Positions 50,821 through 64,000 of a stretch of DNA of 64,000 bases are shown one piece after another. The position numbers were made by a program, and so were the translations under genes. Source of the stretch: a bacterium (GTDB lineage Bacteria; UBA8248); the NCBI GenBank assembly GCA_965261085.1, contig OZ253442.1, positions 192,001 to 256,000 on the forward strand, given 5' to 3'. The stretch's first letter is position 1. Each line of letters starts with the position of its first letter. Below the pieces are notes generated by a model that searched no databases, was not told the origin of the DNA, and saw only the letters and a list, made by a program, of their open reading frames with translations.

Positions 50821-53800
50821 ATGACCCATCCTGAACCAACCGTCCGTAACATCCCGCTGAGCCGGCTGGAACTCGCGCCGGAGAACGTCAGAAAGACGCC
50901 GGAAGACCCGGCCGCCTTCGCGGAGCTCAAGGCTTCCATCGCGGCCCACGATCTGCTGGAGAACCTGATCGTCAGGATAGAGCACCCCGGAGGTGACCCC
51001 GGATCGGGTCCGGGGCAGGCTCATGTCGAGCGTTGCTCCGTGGTCGCCGGCGGACGCCGCCTCGCCGCCATGAAGGCCCTCCTAGAAGAAGAGGTGCTGG
51101 ACGCGGACCACCCCGTACTCTGCCGTGTGATCGGCGCGGCGGAGAACGCAGGAGAGTTTTCACTCGCCGAGAACGTGGTCCGGGTCGCCATGCATCCCGC
51201 CGACCAGGTGGCCGCGTTCACAAAGCTCTCAGAATCGGGCGTCTCCGTCTCCGCCATAGCCGCGCGTTTCGGACTGGCGGAACGCCTGGTCGAACAGCGC
51301 CTGAGTCTCGGCGGCGTGGCGCCTGAGTTGCTCGACGCCTACCGGGAGCAGGAGATGGACCTCGACACCCTGAAAGCCTTCACGGTCACGACCGACCACG
51401 CCCGCCAGAGGACGGCCTGGGAGGGGGTGAAGGAGCAGGGCTACCGCCCGAGCGGCTGGCAGGTGAGGCGCATGCTGACCGAAGAGAGCGTGCCCGCCGT
51501 CTCGGCCGTGGCGCGGTTCGTGGGCGTAGAGGCCTATGAGGCGGCGGGCGGGACGCTCACCCGGGATCTCTTCGCGGGAGAGGACGGGAGCGGGACATGG
51601 TACGACGATCCCGCGCTCCTGAACGAACTCGCGACGGAAAAGCTCCATGCGGCGGCGGACGAACTTAAAGTACGCTGGAAGTGGGCCGAGGCGGTCCTCG
51701 ATACCGACTGGAGCGCGCTCGCGGGCTTCGGGCGGATATCCCCCGAGCCGGCCGCGCCCACCGAGGAGGAGAAGGCCGAGCGGGAGAGCCTGCGCGTCCG
51801 CCAAGACGAACTCGCAGATCTGGATGACGACGAGTGGACCGAGGAACTCGCCTGCGAGGTCGAAGGGATCGAGGGGCGCCTCCGTACGATTGATGAGGCC
51901 GTGGAGGCACGGGCCGCGTTCCGCGAGCAGGATTTCGCGATAGCGGGCTGCATCGCCACGGTCGGCCACGACGGCAGGCTCAAGGTCGTCGAGGGTCTCG
52001 TCAGACCCGAAGACATGCCGGAACGGACGGACGCAGGCGGCGAGGGTGATGGAACGGACCCGGGCCGCGTGGACGCTTCGGCGATCACGGAACCCCTCGC
52101 GGCTCCCCCCGACCCGCGCGCGAGGGTCCGCGAGGAGACAGGGATCGGTATCGGACTCGCCGACGATTTGCGCGCCGTCCGCACGACGCTCGTCAAGGCG
52201 CACTTGTCCGGGGATTTCGAGGCGGCCTTCGACCTGACGCTCTTCCAGCTCGCACGCGCCGTCCAAGCCGATCTCGATGCCGGCCGCTCGGCCGTGATCC
52301 AGCTCGTCTCCACGGGAGAGGCCCTGATGGAGCGGAGGATTGCGGAGATCCCGCCATCCGAATGGGACGACCTGTCGATCGACCTGACGCCCAGGGAATA
52401 CGTGCTCGACTTCCTGGCGCACGCCTTCCCGGTCCAGCTGCAGGAGCCCTTCACCGACGAGGAGGGGAACCTCATGAGCCGGCCCGCCGTCGATGAGGAC
52501 GGGAACCCCGTGCTATCCCAGGAGGCCCTCGCCAAGCGCGAGGCGCTGATCGGGAAGCTGGCCTCCCTCCCGCCGGTGCCCACGGCGCTGGACCAGGTCG
52601 TGCACCGCTTCGGCCACGACGCCGTGGCCGAGGTCACCGGTCGCTCCCGGAGGGTGCTCCGGATGGAGGACGCGCAGGGCGCGCGGCTCGCGCTCCGCCC
52701 GCGTCCCGCATCCGCAGGCCTCGCCGAGACGGCGGCCTTCATGGAAGGTGAGAAGCGGATCCTAGTCTTCTCCATGGCCGGCGGCACGGGTAGGAGCTAC
52801 CACGCCGACCTGGGCTGCGCCAACACGCAGCGAAGGGTCCACTACCTGCTGGAGCCCGGCTGGCGGGCGGATCAGGCGATCCAGGGACTCGGCCGCACCC
52901 ACAGGACGCACCAGGCATCTGCGCCGCTGTTCCGGCCCGTGACCACCGACGTCAAGGGCGAGCGGCGCTTCATCGCCACCATCGCGCGGAGGCTCGACTC
53001 CCTGGGCGCCATCACCCGGGGGCAGCGCAACTCGCAGACCGCCATGTCCGGGAGCGAGGCGACGCTGTTCCGCGCGGGCGACAACCTCGAGAGCCCCTAC
53101 GCCCGGGCGGCGCTCCGCCAGTTCTACGGTGCCCTGTGGCGTGGAGGTGTCCCCGACTGGCCGCTTGCGCGCTTCGAGGAGGCGACGGGCCTCAAGCTCA
53201 CGTACGAGGGAGCGCTCAAGGAGGACCTCCCTCCCATGCCTAAGTTCCTGAACCGCCTGCTCGCGCTTCCCATAGAGGAGCAGAACGCGCTGTTCGCAGA
53301 GCTCGAATCGCGCGTCGAGTCCAATATCGAACAAGCCGTCGAGGCGGGGACCTACGAAGTCGGCGTCGAGACCCTGCGCGCGGACTCGCTCACCGCGGCC
53401 GGGCACGAGACCCTCTACACCCACCCCGGGACCGGGGCTGCGACCGGCCTAGTCGAAATACTCCGCCGCGACCGGCTCGTGCCCGTGACGGCCGACGCCG
53501 CGCTCGATATGGCCGGGAAGGCCGGGGAGCCTGCGCTCGTCGTCAACGCGCGCTCGAAACGGGCGGCCTCCCTCCTGCCGGCGCCCTTGATGATGTTCGA
53601 CGACGGGGGCGTGCAGGAACGGGTGCGTCTCCAGCGGCCCGCCGCCCGGGAGGGCATGGCGAGAGCCGAACTCGATGCCTCGAACTGGCGCGAGGCGGAA
53701 GAAGCCGAATGGCGCGCCCTCTGGGAGGAGGAGGTCGCCTCGCTGCCGGCGCACACCGAATCGCGATTCTGGCTCGTCACCGGGCTCCTCCTGCCGGTCT

Positions 53801-54192
53801 GGGACCGGCTGGGCGCCGAGAACATGCGAGTGCGCCGCCTCGACACCGACGACGGTGAAGCGATGATCGGGCGCGCCTTGGACGCCGCCGGTGTCCGCGC
53901 CGTGCGCGCCGCCTTCGGTCTGGACGGCGGTCCCTCTCTCAGCGCCGGGGAGGCCTTCGATGCCGTCATGGGACGCGGCGAGGTCCTGACCCTCGCGAAC
54001 GGCTGGCGCCTCGCGCGCCGCCGCATCATGGGGGCGCAGCGCCTGGAGATAGAAGGACCCGACGACCGCCACGTCGCCGACTTGAAGCGTGCGGGCTGTA
54101 CGGTCGAGATCGTCTCCTGGAGCGCGCGGGTCTTCGCGCCCGACGCAGCCGTTCTCGCCCGCGTCCTCGAAAGCCGTCCCCTCGCCGACTGA
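50821..54192 (+). CDS. ParB N-domain fused to strawberry-notch C-terminal helicase domain
   Basis: NVRK, VVAGGRR and SLAEN (ParB); then AEVTGRSRR, AGGTGRSYHAD and QGLGRTHR (strawberry notch helicase C). Confidence 0.85.
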   Translation: MTHPEPTVRNIPLSRLELAPENVRKTPEDPAAFAELKASIAAHDLLENLIVRIEHPGGDPGSGPGQAHVERCSVVAGGRRLAAMKALLEEEVLDADHPVLCRVIGAAENAGEFSLAENVVRVAMHPADQVAAFTKLSESGVSVSAIAARFGLAERLVEQRLSLGGVAPELLDAYREQEMDLDTLKAFTVTTDHARQRTAWEGVKEQGYRPSGWQVRRMLTEESVPAVSAVARFVGVEAYEAAGGTLTRDLFAGEDGSGTWYDDPALLNELATEKLHAAADELKVRWKWAEAVLDTDWSALAGFGRISPEPAAPTEEEKAERESLRVRQDELADLDDDEWTEELACEVEGIEGRLRTIDEAVEARAAFREQDFAIAGCIATVGHDGRLKVVEGLVRPEDMPERTDAGGEGDGTDPGRVDASAITEPLAAPPDPRARVREETGIGIGLADDLRAVRTTLVKAHLSGDFEAAFDLTLFQLARAVQADLDAGRSAVIQLVSTGEALMERRIAEIPPSEWDDLSIDLTPREYVLDFLAHAFPVQLQEPFTDEEGNLMSRPAVDEDGNPVLSQEALAKREALIGKLASLPPVPTALDQVVHRFGHDAVAEVTGRSRRVLRMEDAQGARLALRPRPASAGLAETAAFMEGEKRILVFSMAGGTGRSYHADLGCANTQRRVHYLLEPGWRADQAIQGLGRTHRTHQASAPLFRPVTTDVKGERRFIATIARRLDSLGAITRGQRNSQTAMSGSEATLFRAGDNLESPYARAALRQFYGALWRGGVPDWPLARFEEATGLKLTYEGALKEDLPPMPKFLNRLLALPIEEQNALFAELESRVESNIEQAVEAGTYEVGVETLRADSLTAAGHETLYTHPGTGAATGLVEILRRDRLVPVTADAALDMAGKAGEPALVVNARSKRAASLLPAPLMMFDDGGVQERVRLQRPAAREGMARAELDASNWREAEEAEWRALWEEEVASLPAHTESRFWLVTGLLLPVWDRLGAENMRVRRLDTDDGEAMIGRALDAAGVRAVRAAFGLDGGPSLSAGEAFDAVMGRGEVLTLANGWRLARRRIMGAQRLEIEGPDDRHVADLKRAGCTVEIVSWSARVFAPDAAVLARVLESRPLAD

Positions 54193-54344
54193 ACCCGCAC
54201 GTGCGGCCGGCCCGCATACGTATGGCCGGCCCATCTCCGTCCGGCGGGGGGCCGTTCCGCAGTCGTTATCCGTATCGCCGGCCGCCCGGCGCCTGTCGCC
54301 GGGGGCGGCGACAAATTCCGCCATCATTCAAGGGAGTTCGTTCC

Positions 54345-54605
54345 ATGACCTCACAGACACTGCCGAAAGTTACCGACTTCGCCTTCTGCCCGTCCTACGG
54401 ACCCGATGACGAGCCGCAGGAAATACGCCTCGTCATCGACGGAATGACCGGGAGCATCCCCACCGCCCTGGTCGCCCTCACCCTGGAAGACGCCGAGCGC
54501 TTCTGCGACAGGCTCAACGCCCGGCTCGGAATGGACCGGGAGGCCTGGTCCGCTCTGGCCGCGCGAACAATGGGCCCGGCGCAGGACGACGAGGCCGCCG
54601 GTTGA
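54345..54605 (+). CDS. Hypothetical protein
   Basis: AGGGAG RBS, element-like codon usage, 86 aa. Confidence 0.6.
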   Translation: MTSQTLPKVTDFAFCPSYGPDDEPQEIRLVIDGMTGSIPTALVALTLEDAERFCDRLNARLGMDREAWSALAARTMGPAQDDEAAG

Positions 54606-54697
54606 GCCGCCCTCATTGCAATGCAGCCGCCCCGGTGATGTCGGAGGACGCTCACGCGCCGGCTCTTTTTTTGCCCGTTATCCAGAGGAGGTCCGCC

Positions 54698-55672
54698 ATG
54701 TCCCGAACACCATCTCCCGCGGCCGGGATCGCCGCCGCGCTCGCCTCGCGCGCCGAGGAAGTCTGCCGCCGCTATCTGCCCCGGGGCAAAAAGCAGGGCC
54801 GCTACTGGGTCGCGGGCGACGTCGACGGCTCGCCGGGACGCTCTCTCTTCGTCCGCCTGAAGCCTCCGGGCGCGCCGGGCAAATGGACCGACGCGGCCAC
54901 CGGGGAGCACGGCGACCTGCTCGACCTGATCCGCAGCCGTTACGCCTCGCCCACGCTCCGCGCGGCCATGGACGAGGCCCGCGCCTTCCTCGCCCTGCCT
55001 GCCCCACATTTGCCGGCCGGGGGGCCGCCATACGACGCGAGGGAAGCGGCGCGGCGCATCTGGCGGAGTTGCCGCCCGATTGAGGGCGGCCCGGCCGATG
55101 CCTACCTCCGCGCCCGGGGCATCACGCGGTTCCGCTTCCCCTCCCTGCGCTTCCACCCGGCGCTCTACCACCGCGAAGCCGACCGCCGACTGCCCGCCCT
55201 GGTCGCCGCCGTGACCGACTCGGGAGGTGCGCTCCACGCCGTGCACCGCACCTGGATCGATTCCGATGCGCAGACGAAGGCCGGCGTCCTCCCCTCCCGC
55301 AAGGCGCTCGGCCGGGTCTTCGGACGCGCCGTGCGCTTCGGCGCACCCGGCGCCACCCTTCTGGTCGGGGAGGGCGTCGAGACCGTACTCTCGATCGTCA
55401 CCGCGGCGCCCCGGGTCCCCGCTGCGGCCGCACTCTCCGCAGGTAGCCTCGGCGCCTTCGTCCCGCCCGAGGGGGTCACCCGCCTCGTCATCGCTCGGGA
55501 CAACGACGTGGAAGGGGAGGTGGCGGCGGAACGCCTGGCCAAACGCTGCGCCGGGATCGGGGTCGGCGCCCGCGTCATCGTTCCGGAACGCGGCGACTTC
55601 AACGACGACCTCGCTGCGCTCGGCGCCGCTGTCCTCGCGGCACGGCTCGGGCCGCTCTTCCACTTCGCGTGA
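54698..55672 (+). CDS. Plasmid/ICE-type primase-like protein (Toprim)
   Basis: GKWTDAATGEHGDLLDLI, YLRARGI, VHRTW, GEGVET and ARDND. Confidence 0.88.
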   Translation: MSRTPSPAAGIAAALASRAEEVCRRYLPRGKKQGRYWVAGDVDGSPGRSLFVRLKPPGAPGKWTDAATGEHGDLLDLIRSRYASPTLRAAMDEARAFLALPAPHLPAGGPPYDAREAARRIWRSCRPIEGGPADAYLRARGITRFRFPSLRFHPALYHREADRRLPALVAAVTDSGGALHAVHRTWIDSDAQTKAGVLPSRKALGRVFGRAVRFGAPGATLLVGEGVETVLSIVTAAPRVPAAAALSAGSLGAFVPPEGVTRLVIARDNDVEGEVAAERLAKRCAGIGVGARVIVPERGDFNDDLAALGAAVLAARLGPLFHFA

Positions 55673-55770
55673 GTCGGAGAGGAGCGGGCCTGAGCAGGAA
55701 GGGAGGGTTTGACAACCGCCGCCCTGCTGCGCAGCCGGCCTGCCGCCGGTGGGAGGGAGCAAGGTGGAAC

Positions 55771-56562
55771 CTACGGGCCTTTGCCGTATGTCTGGCGCGC
55801 CAACTCTCCCACTCGCCGTTTCTGCATATCGCTCAGCGAGCCGAACGGCGTCTGGGCCTTGGCGCCGTATACGAACAGCGAAGGTTCGCCCGTTATCGCG
55901 TACCACCTCGCATCGACCGGGTACGGGCGTTTTCTGAGCTCCCCGCTTATCTTGCGCCGGAACTCGTGAATCCGCCGCCAGTCGTTCAAGGCCGGGAAGC
56001 GTCCCTCGATATACTCGCGGTCTTTCCTCTTGACGCTCAGCAGGACGATTTCCGGCTTCAGGATTTCCAGCAACCGGCGCCACAGAATGCCGCCTTTCCC
56101 CTGCAGCGCACGGTGTTCCGCTTCTCCAAGCCCGCTCCACGTCGGATTCGTGGCGACGGGCGAACCAAAGTCCGTATGCAGGGCCGTCGAGGGTTTCCGG
56201 CCCGGATAGTAGCTGGCCTCCGCTCCTCCCAGCGCGACGTCGTAGAACCGGAACCATCTGCGATAGGGGTCAGCGTCGAAGTAGGAACACAGGCCTCTCA
56301 GGTAGCGCTCGCCCTCGGTCGCCGTGATCCCGGCGCATCCCGGAAACCTCCGGAACGGAGAACCCTCGGGGAATTCCGCCGACGAAGGATTCGATCCTAC
56401 GGTCACCACCCGAACTGACGAGGCGGAGTATGCCTCCAAATCGCCGAAGAAGAGAATCGGCATGGCGGGATGGACGCGCGAAGACGGAGCAGCGCATTCG
56501 AACGCCTTCCAGGCCTCCGCCACCAGCGAATTCAAACCGCCCCTTTCGATACGCCTGTCCAT
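55771..56562 (-). CDS. Uracil-DNA-glycosylase-like fold hypothetical protein
   Basis: PILFFGD....VVTVGSNPS..EF resembles UDG-superfamily motif 1; LLEILKPEIVLL; GGAGG RBS. Confidence 0.5.
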   Translation of the reverse strand: MDRRIERGGLNSLVAEAWKAFECAAPSSRVHPAMPILFFGDLEAYSASSVRVVTVGSNPSSAEFPEGSPFRRFPGCAGITATEGERYLRGLCSYFDADPYRRWFRFYDVALGGAEASYYPGRKPSTALHTDFGSPVATNPTWSGLGEAEHRALQGKGGILWRRLLEILKPEIVLLSVKRKDREYIEGRFPALNDWRRIHEFRRKISGELRKRPYPVDARWYAITGEPSLFVYGAKAQTPFGSLSDMQKRRVGELARQTYGKGP

Positions 56563-56749
56563 ACCTCCATCTGACACGGACCCGGGGCAAGGGCAAGTCC
56601 CGGCGGTGTCGGCGAGTGGTCCCCACCGGATGAGAACCTCCCCCCGAGAGTAAGAGCGAAGCACGGAACCGGGCAAAGGCCCGGTAGGGAGAGGGAGACG
56701 GTCTTCCGACCCTGATGCCGGGGGCGACAACCCGAGAGGAGGCTGGACC

Positions 56750-56881
56750 ATGTATGAGAACGACTACGACATCGAGATGTTCACCAGTGACGAACTGCTC
56801 GCCGAGATCGGACTCGACGCGTACACGATCCGCAAGTTGCGCAACGAGGCGGACGGCGAAGTGGAGTTTTGTAGCGTTTAG
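56750..56881 (+). CDS. Small acidic hypothetical protein (43 aa)
   Basis: GAGGAGG RBS; MYENDYDIEMFTSDELLAEIGLD... Confidence 0.5.
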   Translation: MYENDYDIEMFTSDELLAEIGLDAYTIRKLRNEADGEVEFCSV

Positions 56882-56955
56882 GACGAACCGGGTGGAGAGA
56901 AAGACTCTCTCCCTCCCATCACTTTTTCACACTCACACCACGAAGGAGTACTACC

Positions 56956-57402
56956 ATGGCATTCGGACTCAACAGAGCGGAACTGATCGGGCGTCTCGGC
57001 GCCGACGTCACCATCAACCATCTCTCGAGCGGCGGGCGCGTCGCGAATCTATCCATCGCCACCGACGAGGGCTACGTCGACAAGCAGTCCGGCGATCGGG
57101 TGGAGAAGACCGAGTGGCACCGGGTCGTGACCTTCCAGCCGGGCCTGGTGGATATGTTTGAGAAGCACGCGAAGAAGGGCCGCCTGGTCTACGTGGCGGG
57201 TAAGCTCCAGACCAGACGCTGGAAGAAGGACGAGGAGGATTCCGATCGGTTCTCGACCGAGATCTTACTCGCCCCCGGCGGGCGGGTGCAGTTCCTGGAG
57301 AAGATGAACGGGAACGGCAATGGCAACGGAGGCGGCGCGCACCCCGAGACGGCCGATGTGGCGGCCACCGCGGGCGTAGTAGGCGAAGATATTCCATTCT
57401 GA
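56956..57402 (+). CDS. ssb: Single-stranded DNA-binding protein
   Basis: LNRAELIGRLGAD, TEWHRVV, KG.LVYVAGKLQTR.W and acidic DIPF tail. Confidence 0.96.
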   Translation: MAFGLNRAELIGRLGADVTINHLSSGGRVANLSIATDEGYVDKQSGDRVEKTEWHRVVTFQPGLVDMFEKHAKKGRLVYVAGKLQTRRWKKDEEDSDRFSTEILLAPGGRVQFLEKMNGNGNGNGGGAHPETADVAATAGVVGEDIPF

Positions 57403-57410
57403 TCACGTCA

Positions 57411-57443
57411 GGGGTCGGCGTTACGGCGCCGGCCCCTTTTTTT
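57411..57443 (+). terminator. Rho-independent terminator after ssb
   Basis: GGGGTCGGCG-loop-CGCCGGCCCC followed by T7. Confidence 0.85.
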
Positions 57444-57535
57444 GCTCGTTATCCAGAGGAGGTCCGCCATGCCCCGAACACCCTCTCCAGCGCCGGGATC
57501 GCCGCCGCCCTCGCCTTTCTCGCCCTGCCGGCCCT
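57426..57535 (+). repeat. Duplicated RBS/5' end of the primase gene (copy of ~54656-54745), truncated
   Basis: Near-identical ..TTTTTTGCYCGTTATCCAGAGGAGGTCCGCCATGYCCCGAACACC..GCCGGGATCGCCGCCGC. Confidence 0.85.
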
Positions 57536-57795
57536 CTCATCTACCGGGAACACCCGGGAAATCTCCGGTTCCGTGAACGATAAACCATGTTCACGGAAGA
57601 TCGGCATGCACCTGCAATCACCGCATACCCTGGACAGTGGTTCGGTCTACCCCCCGCTGCGGGAATTTTGGGCCGGAAAAAACGGCCCAAAATGACCCTC
57701 TCCGCAGCATGAGAGATTGTTTCACGATGAGCTTCGCCTTCATCGTGAAACAACCGGAAGCTCTTGTGTCCCGGTGGCGATACTACCCTCTCTCT

Positions 57796-58023
57796 CTTAG
57801 CGTCCTCATTTTAGCACGAACGGCGAGCAATAAAGGGTGGCCGCTAGCGGCCATCATTTGCCGGTACCCCCCAAAAAACGTCGAGCGGCAAAAAACGAAA
57901 GCGCCGCTCTATGAAGCGTGTTTTTCGGGAACCCCCCGGAAAATGACGAGCCCTTGATTCGCTCGCCTACGGGCATCGGGAACACCACCCGATGCCCTTA
58001 CGTGCTGAAAATGGGGCGCTAAG
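57796..58023 (+). promoter_or_regulatory. Frpo/ssi-like single-stranded DNA promoter (large fold-back)
   Basis: Nested inverted repeats over ~230 nt; the outer arm carries TGnTAAAAT on the minus strand. Confidence 0.7.
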
Positions 58024-58059
58024 AAGCGCATCCGTTAACTCTCTGGAAAGGAGAAAGGC

Positions 58060-58434
58060 ATGGAAACCACCGTGGTGAACCTGAACGACTATGTTGCGCC
58101 CCAATTCGGAAGCGGCTGTCTCGTCGTGATTGACAGGACGACGAAGTGGGGAAATCCCTTCCGGATCGGCCAGGACGGCGACCGCGCCGACGTGATTGAA
58201 AAATACCGGCAATGGCTCTGGAGAAAAATCCAGCAGGAGGAGATCAACCTCTACGAACTCGCCGACCTTCATGGCTGCGAACTCGGCTGCCACTGTCATC
58301 CCCTTCCATGCCACGGCGACGTCCTCGCACGCGCCGCCGCGTGGGCAGCCGACTACCTCGGCGACATGCCCAAAGAAGTGAAGCGAGACGATCTCGGCTA
58401 CGCGCTGCCCCAATACGACTATTCCCTCGCTTGA
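58060..58434 (+). CDS. DUF4326-family protein
   Basis: R.TKWGNPF..G..G.R..VI.KY; LGCHCHPLPCHGDVL. Confidence 0.85.
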   Translation: METTVVNLNDYVAPQFGSGCLVVIDRTTKWGNPFRIGQDGDRADVIEKYRQWLWRKIQQEEINLYELADLHGCELGCHCHPLPCHGDVLARAAAWAADYLGDMPKEVKRDDLGYALPQYDYSLA

Positions 58435-58497
58435 GGACAACCGAACCACTGGCCGAAAAGCCCGGCTGGAAAACCCAATCACTGAAAGGAGTGAACG

Positions 58498-59454
58498 ATG
58501 ACTGCCACCGCGACACACGACCACAAGGAGAGCATCATGCACGAGCACACAGAGCACGAAGCACAGAATGAATCCTTCACCGCCATGGTCTGCGAGCAGG
58601 CAGCGCTGTTCGGCGCAACCCCGGGACCCGATGAGTTCGACAACCGACCCGTATGGGACCAGAACGAATCCACAGACGCCGTCACTCAGGCCTTCCGCAT
58701 CCTCGCGCAAGCCGCACCTGACGGCACGCAACTTGCGGATGAGCGAGCGAATCTCCTCTGGGGCTTCGTCAACACCCTGGACGCCCAGACACAGCGCCTC
58801 GACCGCGCCGCCGACAGGCTCATCCCCGGCATACGCGAACTCCAGCGCGAACAGGACGGCTCCGAGATCAGATCACGCGAACTCGAACTCACGACCGACC
58901 GCGCGCAAAACCTGAGCGACCGCCGAGACGCCTTCGAAGGACTGCGCGACACCGCCGCCGAGGCTTATCGCGTAGAGACCGGCGAGGTCTGGCGGCCCAG
59001 GCGAGGCTCCCACGTCTCCCAAACCGGCAAGCTGACCTCTGCGGTGATCGAGGCGCGCGACTTCCAGCGCGCCAGAAAGGACCGCGAGAACACCGCTCAT
59101 CTTCCCCAGGGAACACTCGTCGCCGTCGCGGGCGGCAAGGAGGCGAACGACGTAAGCAAAATCATCGCGCATCTCGACAAGCTCAAGGCCAAGTACAAAG
59201 ACGTGGTGCTCGTCCACGGCGGCGGCCCCGGCGCCGAGAAGATTGCAGCGGGATGGGCGGAGCGAAACGGCGTCCACCAAGTCGTCTGTAAACCCGACTG
59301 GGACGCACACGGCAGGGCCGCTCCCTTCAGGCGCAACGACGACTTGCTCGCACTCCTGCCCAAGGGCGTCATCGCGTTCCCGGGCAGCGGCATCACAGAC
59401 AACCTCGTCGACAAGGCCCGCACCCTCGGAATTCCCGTCCAAAAAGTAGCGTGA
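58498..59454 (+). CDS. DUF2493/YspA-type SLOG domain protein
   Basis: C-terminal VAVAGG..LVHGG.PGAEKIAAGWA..PDW..HGRAAPFRRND..AFPGSGIT. Confidence 0.85.
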   Translation: MTATATHDHKESIMHEHTEHEAQNESFTAMVCEQAALFGATPGPDEFDNRPVWDQNESTDAVTQAFRILAQAAPDGTQLADERANLLWGFVNTLDAQTQRLDRAADRLIPGIRELQREQDGSEIRSRELELTTDRAQNLSDRRDAFEGLRDTAAEAYRVETGEVWRPRRGSHVSQTGKLTSAVIEARDFQRARKDRENTAHLPQGTLVAVAGGKEANDVSKIIAHLDKLKAKYKDVVLVHGGGPGAEKIAAGWAERNGVHQVVCKPDWDAHGRAAPFRRNDDLLALLPKGVIAFPGSGITDNLVDKARTLGIPVQKVA

Positions 59455-59699
59455 CGTGAACGCTCAACGGGTCGCGTCGTCGCCGCCCGGCGGCGCGGCC
59501 CGTTGCGTCTCGTCGACCAACGCTCGCGCCACTTGCGCCGGCATCGATGATGACTCCGCTGGTCTTGCCGCAGGAACAACTCCCCGCATTGCTCCTCCCG
59601 CTCAATCGCCGCGGCGGCTCCCGCTCGCCATTATCATCGGCAAAAATTTCCCCGACTTGCGTTTCAAAAAATCCCTGCGCTAGCCGCCCTTCGGCGTTT

Positions 59700-59730
59700 C
59701 GTTCAGTACACCCGACGCAGCGGGCTGCAC
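59700..59730 (-). promoter_or_regulatory. Predicted oriT (MOBF nic between 59708 and 59707)
   Basis: Minus strand GTGCAGCCCGCTGCGTCGGGTGT|AC: hairpin GCAG/CTGC plus TGCGTCGGGTGT, 11/12 identical to F TGCGTGGGGTGT|. Confidence 0.7.
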
Positions 59731-60137
59731 CGGCTCCAGAGGCTGCGAATGACCGCGATCTCCTGCGCCCGGCTGTTATGGTTCATCCCCCCGCGCATCC
59801 CCGTCATGCCGGAAATAGTGCGTCGTATTTGCGACGATCCCCTGATTTTGATAATTATATCAACAGGTTAGAGAGAGGCTGGATGCGGTTTTTGCGGTAG
59901 CGTTTCTCCTGCAGATACCAATTGCGTCGCAGACGGGGGTGCGCACGAATATGATCCCACTCGGCCTGCGTCGCAAATGCGACGCAGGACACGGATGCGC
60001 AGGACCATGATCGACCGGCGCAACCCGGCCCGGGAATCCGGTGAGCGCCCGCTGTTTCGGCTTCCGAAAGGCGCAGGCGGGAGCCGGAAACATCTCACAT
60101 GAACGACCATTCAGAGGATAAAACGGGGGAAAACGGC

Positions 60138-60443
60138 ATGGGAAACACGATCAACAAGCACATCCGCGTTGACGAAGACCACTGGAAACGGATCGAAAAG
60201 GCCGCTCATGAGCGGGGGATTTCACCGAGCCGGTTGATGATCTCGGCGGCGCTCGAGGCGATCGAGGGACGGGAATGGCCTCGTACGGAAGCGGAAATCC
60301 ATCTGTTGCGCTCCGCAATGTTCGCCGCACAGGCCATCATCCGCGACATGGAGAGGGCAGGGCGAGAGGAAGAGATCGAGCAAATCAGCAGAAATATCTC
60401 CGAAGTCGCGACCGAATTGCCGGGCAAATCGGGGCGGGATTAA
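60138..60443 (+). CDS. Ribbon-helix-helix protein (probable relaxosome accessory)
   Basis: KHIRVDEDHWKRIEKAAHERGISPSRLM RHH pattern next to oriT; alternative start 60099. Confidence 0.7.
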   Translation: MGNTINKHIRVDEDHWKRIEKAAHERGISPSRLMISAALEAIEGREWPRTEAEIHLLRSAMFAAQAIIRDMERAGREEEIEQISRNISEVATELPGKSGRD

Positions 60444-60642
60444 GTCGGCTTCAAAAAAATTTGCGGGTGATGCGGGTAAGTTTCGGATGAGAATAGTAGT
60501 GTAGCTGACGGAAAGACAACTTTAAACGTTCGGGTTCGAGACGAAAAAGGATGAACTTTTCAAGGCAAAATCGGTCAAATAGATGCAAATTTAGGGAATT
60601 ATAAACTTAACTATGCAAATTAGCTCAAGCCCTTCAATATCT

Positions 60643-60858
60643 TTAACCTGTTTGAATTTTCGAAAGGCTTTCTTTGATATCTTCAAGTTGTCTGATAATT
60701 CCCGGATTTTCTTCCGTTCCATCCAGCAATCTATTCAAATCTTCTCTTAACAATTGATTACTTTTATCTATTCTGTCTGCCATCTTTTTTGCTAACATTC
60801 CAACCTCCTTTTCTAATTTATTCAAACGTTTCTTAATTGTATTTATATTGTTTGTCAT
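60643..60858 (-). CDS. Small coiled-coil hypothetical protein (IS passenger)
   Basis: GGAGAGG RBS; heptad pattern. Confidence 0.6.
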   Translation of the reverse strand: MTNNINTIKKRLNKLEKEVGMLAKKMADRIDKSNQLLREDLNRLLDGTEENPGIIRQLEDIKESLSKIQTG

Positions 60859-60984
60859 AACCCTCTCCCTAAAAAGAAATTCAATTTAATCTTTTTCAAT
60901 AATATCCATTCCGGTATAAACCTTCAATCACTCCAACAAAATCAATATTTCTTAAAATAAAATCAAAATATCTTATAATAACAC

Positions 60985-61013
60985 TTGACATATATTGCAT
61001 TATTTGATATAAT
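60985..61013 (+). promoter_or_regulatory. Perfect-consensus sigma70 promoter of the transposase
   Basis: TTGACA-N17-TATAAT exactly; AGGAG RBS before ATG 61041. Confidence 0.85.
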
Positions 61014-61040
61014 TTTATTATTGAATAGGAGATACACTCA

Positions 61041-61985
61041 ATGGCACACAAAGCACCCGGCAAGGCATTCAGAGAAGGTATTTCACTAATCGACCTTTTC
61101 AAGATGTTCCCCGATGAGGAAACCGCCACCGCATGGTTTGAATGCTTGAAGTGGGGCAAAGACCTTGAATATCTTTGTTGTCCTCGTTGCGGTTGCATGG
61201 ACAAAGTAAGTGTAGTCCCTTCAAAAAAACCTATGCCCTACTGGTGCGGTGATTGCCGACGCAATTTTAGTGTTCGAATTGGAACAGTCATGGAAAAATC
61301 AAGGATTCCCCTTCAAAAATGGGCAATCGCCATGTACCTGAATGTAACAAGCCTTAAAGGTGTTTCTTCAATGAAACTTCATCGAGACCTTGATATTTCC
61401 CAAAGGTCTGCTTGGTTCATGGGCCATAGAATCAGGGAAGCTATGAATAATGAAGAAGGATTGTTTGAAGGCCCTGTTGAAATCGATGAAACTTATGTAG
61501 GTGGTTTGGAAAGGAACAAACACGGGAAGAAGAAACTCAAGGCAGGACGCGGTGGAGTAGGTAAGGAAATCGTAGTTGGAATCAAGGATCGCAAAACCAA
61601 TAAAATTCATGTCGAAGTGGTGGAAGATACCAAGCAGGAAACATTACATGAAGTGGTGAATAGAAACGTTGATGATGATGCTGATAAGTTCACTGATGAA
61701 AATCGTTCATATAGGGGATTGAAGAACCACAAGAGAGTGAACCATAGCATGGGCAAGTGGGTTGATGAAATGGCTCACACAAACGGCATTGAATCCTTCT
61801 GGTCAATGTTCAAGCGGGGATTTCATGGAACCTACCACCGGATGAGCCGCAAGCAGTTGCATCGCTATATCAATGAATTTAGTGATAAACACAATATCCG
61901 ACCAATGGATACTATTTCCCAAATGGAAACTCTTGCCGGTAACATGGACGGCAAGAGACTAACCTATGAAGATTTGGTTGCTTAA
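61041..61985 (+). CDS. IS1595-family transposase
   Basis: Zn ribbon CPRC..CGDC, KGVSS..LHRDL, EIDETYVGG, FTDE, VNHS, HTNGIESFW and YINEF. Confidence 0.95.
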   Translation: MAHKAPGKAFREGISLIDLFKMFPDEETATAWFECLKWGKDLEYLCCPRCGCMDKVSVVPSKKPMPYWCGDCRRNFSVRIGTVMEKSRIPLQKWAIAMYLNVTSLKGVSSMKLHRDLDISQRSAWFMGHRIREAMNNEEGLFEGPVEIDETYVGGLERNKHGKKKLKAGRGGVGKEIVVGIKDRKTNKIHVEVVEDTKQETLHEVVNRNVDDDADKFTDENRSYRGLKNHKRVNHSMGKWVDEMAHTNGIESFWSMFKRGFHGTYHRMSRKQLHRYINEFSDKHNIRPMDTISQMETLAGNMDGKRLTYEDLVA

Positions 61986-61987
61986 TC

Positions 61988-62122
61988 ATGACGAAAATAG
62001 AAAACGATAAGAAGAAAGAAGAACAAAAGAAAGCGCGAGATTCTATCCCTTCGGAAGTGCATGAACAAGTAGAAGCCGTAGCAAAAAAGATTCTTGGAGT
62101 TCATAAAAAGAAGAAAAAGTAA
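61988..62122 (+). CDS. Small Lys-rich ORF directly after the transposase (44 aa)
   Basis: Starts 2 nt after the transposase stop; MTKIENDKKKEEQKK...VAKKILGVHKKKKK. Confidence 0.5.
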   Translation: MTKIENDKKKEEQKKARDSIPSEVHEQVEAVAKKILGVHKKKKK

Positions 62123-62144
62123 GATTTTCTTGTATAAATAGAAA

Positions 62145-62254
62145 CGGCGACACCCGGCAGTGGGAATTTTCCCTCGGTTGCTCTAAGGCTTGGAGGTAAG
62201 GCCACATCCCAACGCGGTGGTGGCACGTCCCTTAACCTGCCGGGTGTCTCGCCG
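62145..62254. ncRNA. Structured element A (long closing stem)
   Basis: GACACCCGGCAG/CTGCCGGGTGTC 12-bp perfect stem plus CGGC/GCCG; GC-rich island in AT-rich DNA. Confidence 0.45.
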
Positions 62255-62513
62255 CGCCGTTCCTTATCTTAATCATGTTATCCACTTCAAGTCAATTTCT
62301 TATACCCAACACAACCACAATGACACGAATCACAAGAATGATAATGAATGAAAAGAGACAACATGATATCCATGAAGAAGCAATGGAATGGGTTAATGAT
62401 AGTGTGATGTCTTGGATTCGGAATGGGGATGTTCTTGAGGAAATAATCAATAGAGGCTGGTTGTATTATGGAATCGTGGCGTATCGTGTGAACCATTCAA
62501 ACGAGGACAAAAA

Positions 62514-62723
62514 TTGAAAATCTTCCGTGAAAAAATTCGAACAACAAATGAAAAACGATGGGTTCAGGCATCCATAGAAGATAAGCATTGCATCAAGATA
62601 CGAAGCAAAAGGAATATGGTACGACTTCCCGATGATCGTGATGATATGTATTCAAGTCGTCTAGGCGTCAGGACATGGAAAAACTACCGGAAAAACCAAT
62701 GGAAAATGATTAAATTAATTTAA
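62514..62723 (+). CDS. Small basic hypothetical protein
   Basis: GAGG RBS, TTG start; RTTNEKR..IRSKR..LPDDRDD..RTWKNYRKNQWK. Confidence 0.5.
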   Translation: MKIFREKIRTTNEKRWVQASIEDKHCIKIRSKRNMVRLPDDRDDMYSSRLGVRTWKNYRKNQWKMIKLI

Positions 62724-62890
62724 TCTTGACTTTCTAATTTTTGTTTTTTCGTCAATTCTTCTAATTTTTTGGTATTTTTCAAATCGCCAACAACTCCCTT
62801 CTCAATAATATAGGTCTTTTATGGTAAAAATGCAAATTGTTCCGCTTCCGACTTCTCCCGGTTGAAATTGAGTCCATAATCGTAAATAGT

Positions 62891-62986
62891 GGGGATTACC
62901 CATCGCTCTTTTTTTCCAGACAGGAGGACTCAACTCTAATCTGGAACGACACTTCTTTCCACGAGGTTAACCGATGGGTAATCCCC
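62891..62986. ncRNA. Structured element B (long closing stem)
   Basis: Perfect 15-bp inverted repeat GGGGATTACCCATCG/CGATGGGTAATCCCC; inner TTCCAGA/TCTGGAA stem. Confidence 0.45.
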
Positions 62987-63057
62987 TGTCTACTTATTTC
63001 GCTACAGCCCTTGGATTGTTGTGTTGATATGGTGGTTGATTCAATTTCTCAATGCTC

Positions 63058-63312
63058 TTAACTTATAGCCTTAAAACCATTAACTACATTATTGTTGGTG
63101 GTCTCAACGAGCTTGCACACAACTTTAAGGCCGTTGTCCAATTGATCAATCCGGCCATCCATTTTGTCGAGCCGGCCATCCATTTTGTCGAGCCGACCAT
63201 CAATCTTGTCGAACCGAGCATCGTGCTCATCAAACCGACCATCAATCTTGTCGAAGCGATCATTCATATCACCGCGAAATTCCTTAAATGTTTGTCTTGT
63301 TTCATCGTCCAT
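63058..63312 (-). CDS. Small coiled-coil protein with 7-aa tandem repeats
   Basis: (F/L)DK(I/M)DGR heptads encoded by 21-bp tandem repeats at ~63151-63275; GGAGG RBS. Confidence 0.7.
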   Translation of the reverse strand: MDDETRQTFKEFRGDMNDRFDKIDGRFDEHDARFDKIDGRLDKMDGRLDKMDGRIDQLDNGLKVVCKLVETTNNNVVNGFKAIS

Positions 63313-63393
63313 AGATCAAACCTCCTTTACCTTCCTCCATTCTGTTTCATGGGTGCGAGGCTACACAATGTATAACCCCGCACCCAATAATTC

Positions 63394-64000
63394 TTATTTC
63401 TTTTCCGCGCCGAATGCGCCAGCAACTATTCCATTCACAAAATTACCATTGAACTCGCCGGTAGCCATAGTGGGAGCATCATCCCCACCGCCGCCGTATA
63501 GCATTCCTTCATAAGGCGCGTCGGTCCCGCCACCGTTCGTCATGCCGGAGAAAGCACCCGTGCCGGGGGTAATTTCTCCCTGTTTTAGCTTGAGCACCCA
63601 AGCGTTCATTTCCCCACCCGAGAGGTCGAAATTTGTGACCATGCCCTCGATAGTGTCCGCTTTGTTCACCGAAACGTCGTTCCCTCCAAATGATGCGGTC
63701 AGTTCCACATCAGCCATGAACGAGCCAGCCGTCACCTTCTCCTTGCTGCCATCCGCCTTGAGTGTGTCATAGGTGTAAACACCCGCCGCATTGCCTTCAT
63801 AAGTCGCCGTTCCCTCAACGTTGCTGTAATCAGGAGTAGTATCTGCATCCGCAAGAGACACGGCTCCGTGGAAGGTCTGAACGGCGCTGTACCCTTTATC
63901 GTTCTTCTTGAGCCAAAAACCGTAGTAATGGTAATCGGTATCCGCCACGTCAACCGTTGCGCCCGCGTCCGGCGTAAATCTGAACGTGCCCGTGAACGCC
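63394..64000 (-). CDS. Transferrin-binding-protein-like / Slam-dependent lipoprotein, C-terminal beta-barrel (starts beyond the window)
   Basis: YYGFWL, GTATYEGNAAGVY, F.ADVELTA.F, GEFNGNF.NG.VAGAFGA; frame open to the window end. Confidence 0.8.
   Translation of the reverse strand, partial: AFTGTFRFTPDAGATVDVADTDYHYYGFWLKKNDKGYSAVQTFHGAVSLADADTTPDYSNVEGTATYEGNAAGVYTYDTLKADGSKEKVTAGSFMADVELTASFGGNDVSVNKADTIEGMVTNFDLSGGEMNAWVLKLKQGEITPGTGAFSGMTNGGGTDAPYEGMLYGGGGDDAPTMATGEFNGNFVNGIVAGAFGAEKK

Follow-up and report, generated by a model that had tools for sequence, protein, structure and literature searches.

Here we describe an uncatalogued family of three-stem-junction RNAs with covarying stems. 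Their loops match ribosome-binding sites in genes for surface lipoproteins, which these RNAs probably silence, a function read from complementarity. One copy, element B, is carried together with a second hairpin, element A, by an IS1595 transposon in the 64,000-nt stretch of bacterial DNA analysed here (the window, G000:C1:192001-256000, where G000 is the window's genome). A preliminary description had treated A and B as one family; we find that they are unrelated passengers of one IS1595 transposon. On our best reading, B is a chaperone-independent antisense repressor that would act in the manner of phage C4/CI RNAs but does not belong to C4, and A is a phage-leader remnant—an explanation that, taken as a whole, we favour with modest confidence.

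Transposon and cargo

Both stem-loops sit within an IS1595 element of ~5.1 kb, as the preliminary description had proposed; the transposase, the terminal repeats, and the target duplication were all found (Table 1). The terminal repeats agree over 33 bp at 97% identity, target duplication included, with an identical 8-mer on both sides; target duplications of the IS1595 family are 8 bp long. From the left the element has a divergent coiled-coil ORF, the transposase, a micro-ORF, A, and two small ORFs, and the strand opposite to the transposase carries a cassette that runs from a leader RNA, 'G', through the lipoprotein gene and a small ORF to B. A sister element (L021) has a transposase 88% identical to the window's; because it differs in its cargo and has another RNA in A's place, we regard A and B as passengers. 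Homologs of the 80-aa ORF were found in another island of relatives with no A adjoining. The stretch is covered in two pieces by contigs of one sequencing run, maybe that of the window's own sample, with zero differences.

The lipoprotein has no sequence match in Pfam or PDB. A language-model look-up suggested a TbpB-type C-terminal barrel (score 0.95), which has low recognition value and serves as a lead only; single-sequence structure prediction of the barrel reached a pLDDT of 33.

Table 1. Features of the IS1595 element in the window, with two promoter examples from other loci
Feature	Position	Strand	Remarks
Left copy of 8-bp target-site duplication	60586..60593	+	same 8 bases after right terminal repeat, beyond window, G000:C1:257688-257695
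Left terminal inverted repeat of IS1595 element	60594..60619	+	partner right repeat G000:C1:257662-257687, 1.7 kb past window
71-aa coiled-coil passenger ORF	60643..60858	-	divergent from transposase; Pfam matches sub-threshold only
Perfect sigma-70 consensus (12/12)	60985..61013	+	upstream of transposase
IS1595 (ISXO2-like) DDE transposase, 314 aa	61041..61985	+	PF12762, E 3.5e-39; zinc ribbon PF12760 below cut-off
44-aa basic micro-ORF	61988..62122	+	sister element L021 also has one after its transposase
Element A, multibranched hairpin	62135..62261	+ (provisional)	
Promoter-like site (9/12)	62266..62295	-	aimed into A from right
Passenger ORF, 80 aa	62275..62517	+	homologs start near residue 24
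69-aa passenger ORF	62514..62723	+	3 homologs, 85-89% identity
Target-like word pair (ACGA, GGACUCAA)	62868..62884	-	just 3' of B in B's sense; a trait of this copy, not general in the B family
Element B, diverged three-stem-junction RNA	62890..62987	-	same sense as cargo lipoprotein gene
B second loop and adjoining arm (GUUGAGUCCUCCUG)	62921..62934	-	complementary to Shine-Dalgarno and spacer of chromosomal lipoprotein genes
B first loop (UCGUG)	62959..62966	-	complementary to CACGA in lipoprotein leaders
84-aa coiled-coil ORF	63058..63312	-	between lipoprotein gene and B
543-aa lipobox-CGGGG lipoprotein, 3' part	63394..64000	-	gene start beyond window, G000:C1:257025
Opposite-strand promoter examples at B copies	L014:3688, L015:4747		

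Other elements lie nearby. The region of the window that adjoins the transposon (50821-60443) is GC-rich and integrative-element-like, and encodes a ParB-like/helicase fusion, a toprim protein, Ssb, a NikA-like protein (PF21983), and a product that we take to be a DUF2493-type protein. The leader RNA G belongs to a third uncatalogued RNA family, ~125 nt long, with the words GCUGAAUACAA and GAAUAGGCG and no Rfam match. Its copy just past the window lies at G000:C1:257222-257340 (minus); there are 10 more places in G000, and copies occur at L021, L022, L029, L031, L126, L127, L184, L185, L190, and L191, as well as in records titled Acidobacteriota and Vicinamibacteria. G usually stands directly after a TTGACA-type promoter, ahead of lipoprotein or other cargo genes, and its word CGGG(U/C)C has a complementary site immediately 3' of the G closing stem. 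In another IS1595 element, the cargo includes a tRNA-like sequence within a long inverted repeat (L185:5225-5367).

Relationship between elements A and B

Most of the features on which the preliminary description relied are real. The closing stem of B is a perfect 15 bp (62891-62905/62972-62986), and that of A has 12 perfect base pairs (62149-62160/62237-62248) and extends beyond a bulge to 62143/62261; TAAATAG (62135, 62883) and TTAAC (62232, 62967) are where they had been placed, and both elements are richer in GC (A 0.64, B 0.49) than the DNA in between (0.36). Both folds also beat dinucleotide shuffles, with z of -3.3 (plus) and -3.8 (minus) for A and about -7 for B.

The kinship drawn from these features does not stand. 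CTCTAA and GGAGG, named among the shared motifs, come in reversed order in A and B, and they are hardly conserved—among 51 other B-family members CTCTAA occurs in 3 and GGAGG in 1, and the TAAATAG flank is found in one of 93 copies, namely the window's own. From the series AACG..CACG..TTAAC, CACG (43/51) and, in part, AACG (35/51) survive as traits of the B family; TTAAC (1/51) does not. Under a covariance model from which it was left out, the window's B (minus strand) scores 67.9 bits; A reaches just 4.4 bits (E 2.4), for the closing stem only and with the second loop, UGAGUCCUC, absent, and a true distant B member retains both loops and has 47 bits. The mean alignment z against the 51 members is -0.96 for A and +6.4 for B, and six scoring schemes for a direct alignment of A to B gave P values of 0.04-0.16, which are at most borderline. 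The sole support for kinship is a set of six shared words of ≥6 nt, five of them collinear, where 2.2 are expected (P 0.016), and these are not the conserved words of the B family. A common family for A and B, with stems that changed and motifs that stayed, is largely refuted, and we regard it as very improbable.

The B family

A profile search gave four B copies in the window's genome besides the window's, making five, and covariance models found the family in 16/22 genomes of the same genus and 1/28 other genomes of the phylum. From 30 fetched loci and 60 further regions around listed hits we obtained 93 distinct copies, 52 of them below 95% identity; the alignment and model comprise 51 copies, with the window's left out. 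The fold is a three-stem junction of ~105 nt in which 95.9% of cells are paired, 15 of 29 pairs show double changes, and covariation is seen in all five helical segments; no shuffle out of 500 matched the family's covariation, although relatedness inflates such counts. The preliminary description had proposed a structured RNA family and had suggested a search for further copies, covariation, and Rfam matches: for B such a family exists, with 93 distinct copies and covarying stems, and the Rfam scan gave no match. The window's B is without most of its first stem and, judged by its sequence, may be a degenerate copy.

Searches for known relatives were negative within their scope. Rfam gave nothing above the gathering score in positions 56000-64000 of the window or in six loci that contain copies of B, G, or C, and the Rfam C4 model matched neither there nor, at E ≤ 1, in the genome (150 of 1105 candidates scored). 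No paper on the B RNA family was found in a search of largely open-access literature. Outside the phylum, B was not found in 10 genomes reached via transposase loci; two viral pattern hits have a fold unlike B, and 20 further regions, 19 of them other IS1595 elements, yielded no B.

Several observations bear on which strand is structured. Among non-canonical cells there are 117 G-U on the minus strand vs 27 on the plus strand (counted as sequences, not events), and the junction words GUAC/GAAC, which resemble a sarcin-ricin/loop-E motif, are read on the minus strand. This structured strand is the mRNA sense of the upstream lipoprotein gene.

B is not intrinsic to IS1595 elements; it belongs to the 3' region of lipoprotein operons and here travels as transposon cargo. 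Within 700 nt upstream of 63 of the 93 distinct copies there is a lipobox-CGGG lipoprotein ORF or a typical lipoprotein C-terminus. The leader word AGGAGGACTCRMWAAR has 64 matches in 51 genomes, with a same-strand B 1.6-5.6 kb downstream in 55 and upstream in 2, co-occurrences and counts that are not independent, since the leaders as well as the B copies are paralogs and are duplicated jointly. The order transposase, lipoprotein, small ORF, B-like RNA, and terminal repeat, as in the window, recurs in a distant IS1595 element (L140) whose genome belongs to another family; its lipoprotein is 41% identical to the window's and its RNA keeps both loop words. At a conserved locus behind a glyoxalase-like gene (L013, L035-L051, L124) there are one to three tandem B copies, ~180 nt apart, with a lipoprotein gene in two genomes (L039, L049) and none in the others read.

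Candidate targets of B

Two loops of B are conserved, UCGU(G/C) in 49/51 copies and UG(A/G)GUCCUC in 42/51, and a word in two parts at the lipoprotein ribosome-binding site, CACGA…GAGGACUCA, is the complement of the loops UCGUG and UUGAGUCCUC. In 100 distinct lipoprotein leaders GAGGACTCA is exact in 28, has one change in 6 and two changes in 1, and is absent from 65. All six one-mismatch leaders (five A>G, one C>T) keep the predicted pairing by G·U, so that by sequence the second seed fits 34/100 leaders. The first-loop site, ACGA, lies adjacent, ≤8 nt upstream, in 19/49 leaders; a further 22 have a weaker word of 5-6 nt at 25-30 nt upstream, and 8 have none. In the window's genome GAGGACTCA precedes 2/5 lipoprotein-like GGAGG starts vs 0/944 others. 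Half of the main B seed is anti-Shine-Dalgarno, fit for many genes.

The window's B has a longer seed, UGAGUCCUCCUG. Ranked by duplex energy over 1,789 ORF starts, three chromosomal lipoprotein starts take ranks 1-3 with this seed, and its own cargo gene takes rank 618; with the seeds of chromosomal B copies, those same lipoprotein starts rank 2-35, high but never first. Natural variants also match—the loop variant CUCGUGAU fits the leader variant ATCACGAG at another locus, and CAUCGUCG fits CGACGATG, whose leader is conserved across 12 genomes including G000, where the fitting gene (68700) has no B downstream. An overlapping site for GACCCAA-type copies (CACGAGGACCCAAC, G000:C1:804345 minus, before a lipoprotein pair) occurs in 1/51 genomes only, and a 20-nt match to a B4-type arm precedes a sugar-transferase-like gene at G000:C1:4008308 (minus); the target-like words at these two places are longer, and stand in or just behind G elements. 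Within 200-250 nt of B copies target words are only scattered.

At one locus (L015:2250-3100, that is G000:C1:2082250-2083100) an 800-nt lipoprotein leader has a G-like RNA, then three hairpins, then the true start. The three hairpins and the start, four units in all, carry ATCACGAG…GAGGACTC target words, and every hairpin could base-pair through its 3' arm with the unit that follows; the leader hairpins are possibly decoys or an attenuator.

Proposed mechanism and alternatives

We propose that transcription of the lipoprotein operon runs into B as its last, 3' segment, and that the long closing stem of B leads to its release as a stable RNA of ~100 nt. The loops would dock on CACGA and GAGGACUCA, the 3-bp apical stem would open and cover the Shine-Dalgarno sequence, and translation of lipoprotein mRNAs would be lowered in trans without Hfq; neither Hfq nor CsrA (PF02599) was found in the 96%-complete window genome. 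The small-RNA role suggested in the preliminary description agrees with this best reading of B, and nothing was found that speaks for its other suggestions, an antitoxin or a cassette-capture site. The transposon's B would act on host chromosomal paralogs, not on its own cargo gene. We put forward only tentatively, as a doubtful possibility, that its seed, grown to 12 nt, hits the ribosome-binding sites of these paralogs while its own lipoprotein gene escapes.

B might act in cis only: its structure in the 3' UTR could stabilise the end of the mRNA or mark it, or B could fold onto the ribosome-binding site of its own transcript. Its location in the 3' region of lipoprotein operons fits such a role, as do the 25/47 cognate leader/B pairs with a common word of ≥8 nt at the ribosome-binding site. 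However, the window copy fits other genes and not its own, loop variants fit leaders elsewhere (the CAUCGUCG type even a gene with no B behind it), and tandem copies persist at a locus whose lipoprotein gene is gone in most genomes; we consider purely cis action unlikely. It is also conceivable, if quite unlikely, that the opposite strand does the work from its own promoter, as a leader-word mimic that, in the way of CsrB, sequesters a repressor, be it protein or RNA. A conserved sigma-70-like site (TTGnnA-17/18-TATAAn) ends 6-8 nt outside the closing stem at 16/84 B flanks on that strand and at 0/84 in the sense direction; against this, wobble pairs favour the mRNA-sense strand, the host's CsrA was not found, the window copy has no promoter site at that spacing, and an antisense transcript could equally inhibit B. 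Shared ancestry, the partly generic anti-Shine-Dalgarno seed, and these opposite-strand sites keep both the cis-element and the sponge readings alive.

Alternatively, B could serve DNA recombination as a single-stranded hairpin that ends lipoprotein cassettes on their 3' side, much as attC does in integrons; we regard this as highly unlikely. B does follow variable genes, tandem arrays without genes exist, and the strand bias does not speak against a DNA hairpin, because G-T wobble is tolerated in DNA too. The attC core runs in the order RYYYAAC…GTTRRRY, and compared by eye with this core the order in B is reversed; moreover, the conserved bases of B are the loops that match ribosome-binding sites, and no joint at B was among those listed for three DNA runs (contigs drop rare variants). 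The antisense repressor remains our preferred reading, and it is testable with simple reporters because the seed and its target are short, well-defined words with natural variants.

Relation to known RNAs

B resembles C4 of phages P1/P7 (RF01695) and P4 CI in being a three-stem junction of similar size. C4 is released through RNase P processing. The two seeds of C4/CI (a', b') match a two-part target, and the two loops of B are predicted to be complementary to a two-part site; two seeds on a three-stem junction are described for C4/CI (PMC2864571, PMC4825925, PMC8198154). The P4 CI RNA is cut out of a longer transcript (PMC4825925), and full repression of ant requires C4 (PMC8198154); in machine-read figure labels the C4 seeds come as a' then b', and the P1 rows show b'/b1 complementarity only. 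B is unlike C4 in that the neighbours in the loci read are lipoprotein genes and not a phage immunity operon (icd, ant, kil), that its predicted targets are kilobases off or at other loci whereas C4 targets flank the RNA in the same operon, and that, unlike in C4/CI, both seeds are in apical loops. Membership in C4 was rejected, as there is no model match, no flanking targets, and no phage context.

Small RNAs of the MicL type are 3'-UTR-derived envelope regulators, cut or transcribed from the 3' region of a unit and repressing a lipoprotein mRNA. B would likewise originate in the 3' region of its operon and has lipoprotein mRNA as its predicted target; unlike MicL, it is highly structured and multicopy, travels with its target gene family, and has a host in which Hfq was not detected. 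A transposon-borne RNA that pairs in trans with a host mRNA has a precedent in the IS200 tnpA-derived sRNA that regulates invF (PMC5435999). B, too, is carried by a transposon and has predicted host mRNA targets in trans, but is a passenger with a lipoprotein cassette and not part of the transposase mRNA, and its predicted targets are paralogs of its own cargo gene.

Element A

The 5' half of A has the order TAAATA, GGAA/TTCCC hairpin, CTCTAA, GGAG, as in phage endonuclease leaders, with ATC where those leaders have ATG, 8 nt after the Shine-Dalgarno word and 9 codons before a stop. Searched as an ordered pattern (TAAATA, GGAA/TCCC hairpin, CTCTAA, Shine-Dalgarno), with ranges set in knowledge of A, it has A as its only match in the 4.27-Mb genome, none in 12.8 Mb of shuffles, and covers 58/62 phage leaders. 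A viral pattern scan gave at least 122 loci, 100 with TAAATA upstream, 80 with a Shine-Dalgarno word and ATG, and 70 with an ORF of ≥80 aa; 10 of 20 ORFs drawn from those 70 have HNH, NUMOD3, or I-TevI domains. The phage leader motif (L256-L335 and further viral loci) reads TAAATA, stem, TCGCGGA…TCCC, CTCTAA, GGAG, CAGC ATG; it is abundant before diverse HNH/GIY-YIG-type endonuclease genes, and 13 of its loci had no Rfam match.

A also aligns in its 5' half (P 3e-4 to 7e-4) with an element C, which was chosen from 12 TATAAATAG sites. C is a phage-type leader hairpin inside a mini-element of ~560 bp (L016:544-1102 = G000:C1:3220043-3220601) with the same IS1595 terminal repeats as the window's element, and it precedes an internally deleted tnpB (PF07282, E 1.6e-25). 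C fits the profile of 62 phage leaders (E 9.6e-5, 23.5 bits); A gets no score from this profile, which is biased against it because the leaders were selected on TCGCGG, and A has no TCGCG word. A is like the leaders of homing-endonuclease genes in T4-like phages in its TATAAATA word, hairpin, and Shine-Dalgarno sequence, and unlike them in the missing TCGCG and nuclease ORF, in ATC for ATG, and in extra sequence on the 3' side with which it forms a long closing stem. Late-promoter/RBS hairpins before endonuclease genes of T4-like phages have been described in two papers, which may already show the leader motif (PMC2988022, PMC2677866).

Because ATC replaces ATG and no ORF follows, we lean towards reading A as what is left of a phage-type leader with late promoter and RBS hairpin that has lost its nuclease ORF; today A may do no more than keep convergent transcripts apart as a structured spacer. 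BLAST and a single-sequence covariance model gave no homolog of A in 51 genomes of the phylum (best E 0.003 over 26 nt, 0.03 per genome); none was found either in 5 genomes reached via transposase loci, in GenBank phages or PLSDB plasmids, in the retrieved loci that were searched, or with two exact patterns in viral contigs. Its loops, searched against 3,575 ORF starts, gave no target above chance. Membership in the G family was rejected by eye, as A is without G's invariant words.

A weaker rival is that A acts from the minus strand as an antisense RNA against the transposase mRNA, transcribed from the promoter-like site at 62295-62266, and we think this unlikely. Three words of 9-10 nt are common to A and the transposase transcript (P 0.001-0.003 against shuffles; 0/214 AT-matched windows), two of them 3 nt apart (P 0.02). 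These words were, however, seen before testing; one lies in the closing stem and another fits the opposite strand. The promoter-like site is weak because 13 such sites were found vs 7.5 expected, a match at chance level, the sister element L021 has another RNA at A's place, and no A homolog is at hand for testing conservation. The leader remnant remains the reading of A that we prefer.

Significance

On the doubtful reading in which the transposon silences host paralogs while its own gene escapes, one insertion would swap the surface coat of the cell; more widely, each lipoprotein operon would emit an RNA that silences others, and multicopy C4-like RNAs that cross-repress lipoprotein paralogs would form an RNA-based exclusion network for surface variation. 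If the pairing is real, an RNA mechanism in the style of phage immunity would have a new job—choosing which proteins of a large surface-lipoprotein family are made—in a bacterium without detectable Hfq, and a transposon would change the surface proteins of its host in trans, beyond the addition of genes.
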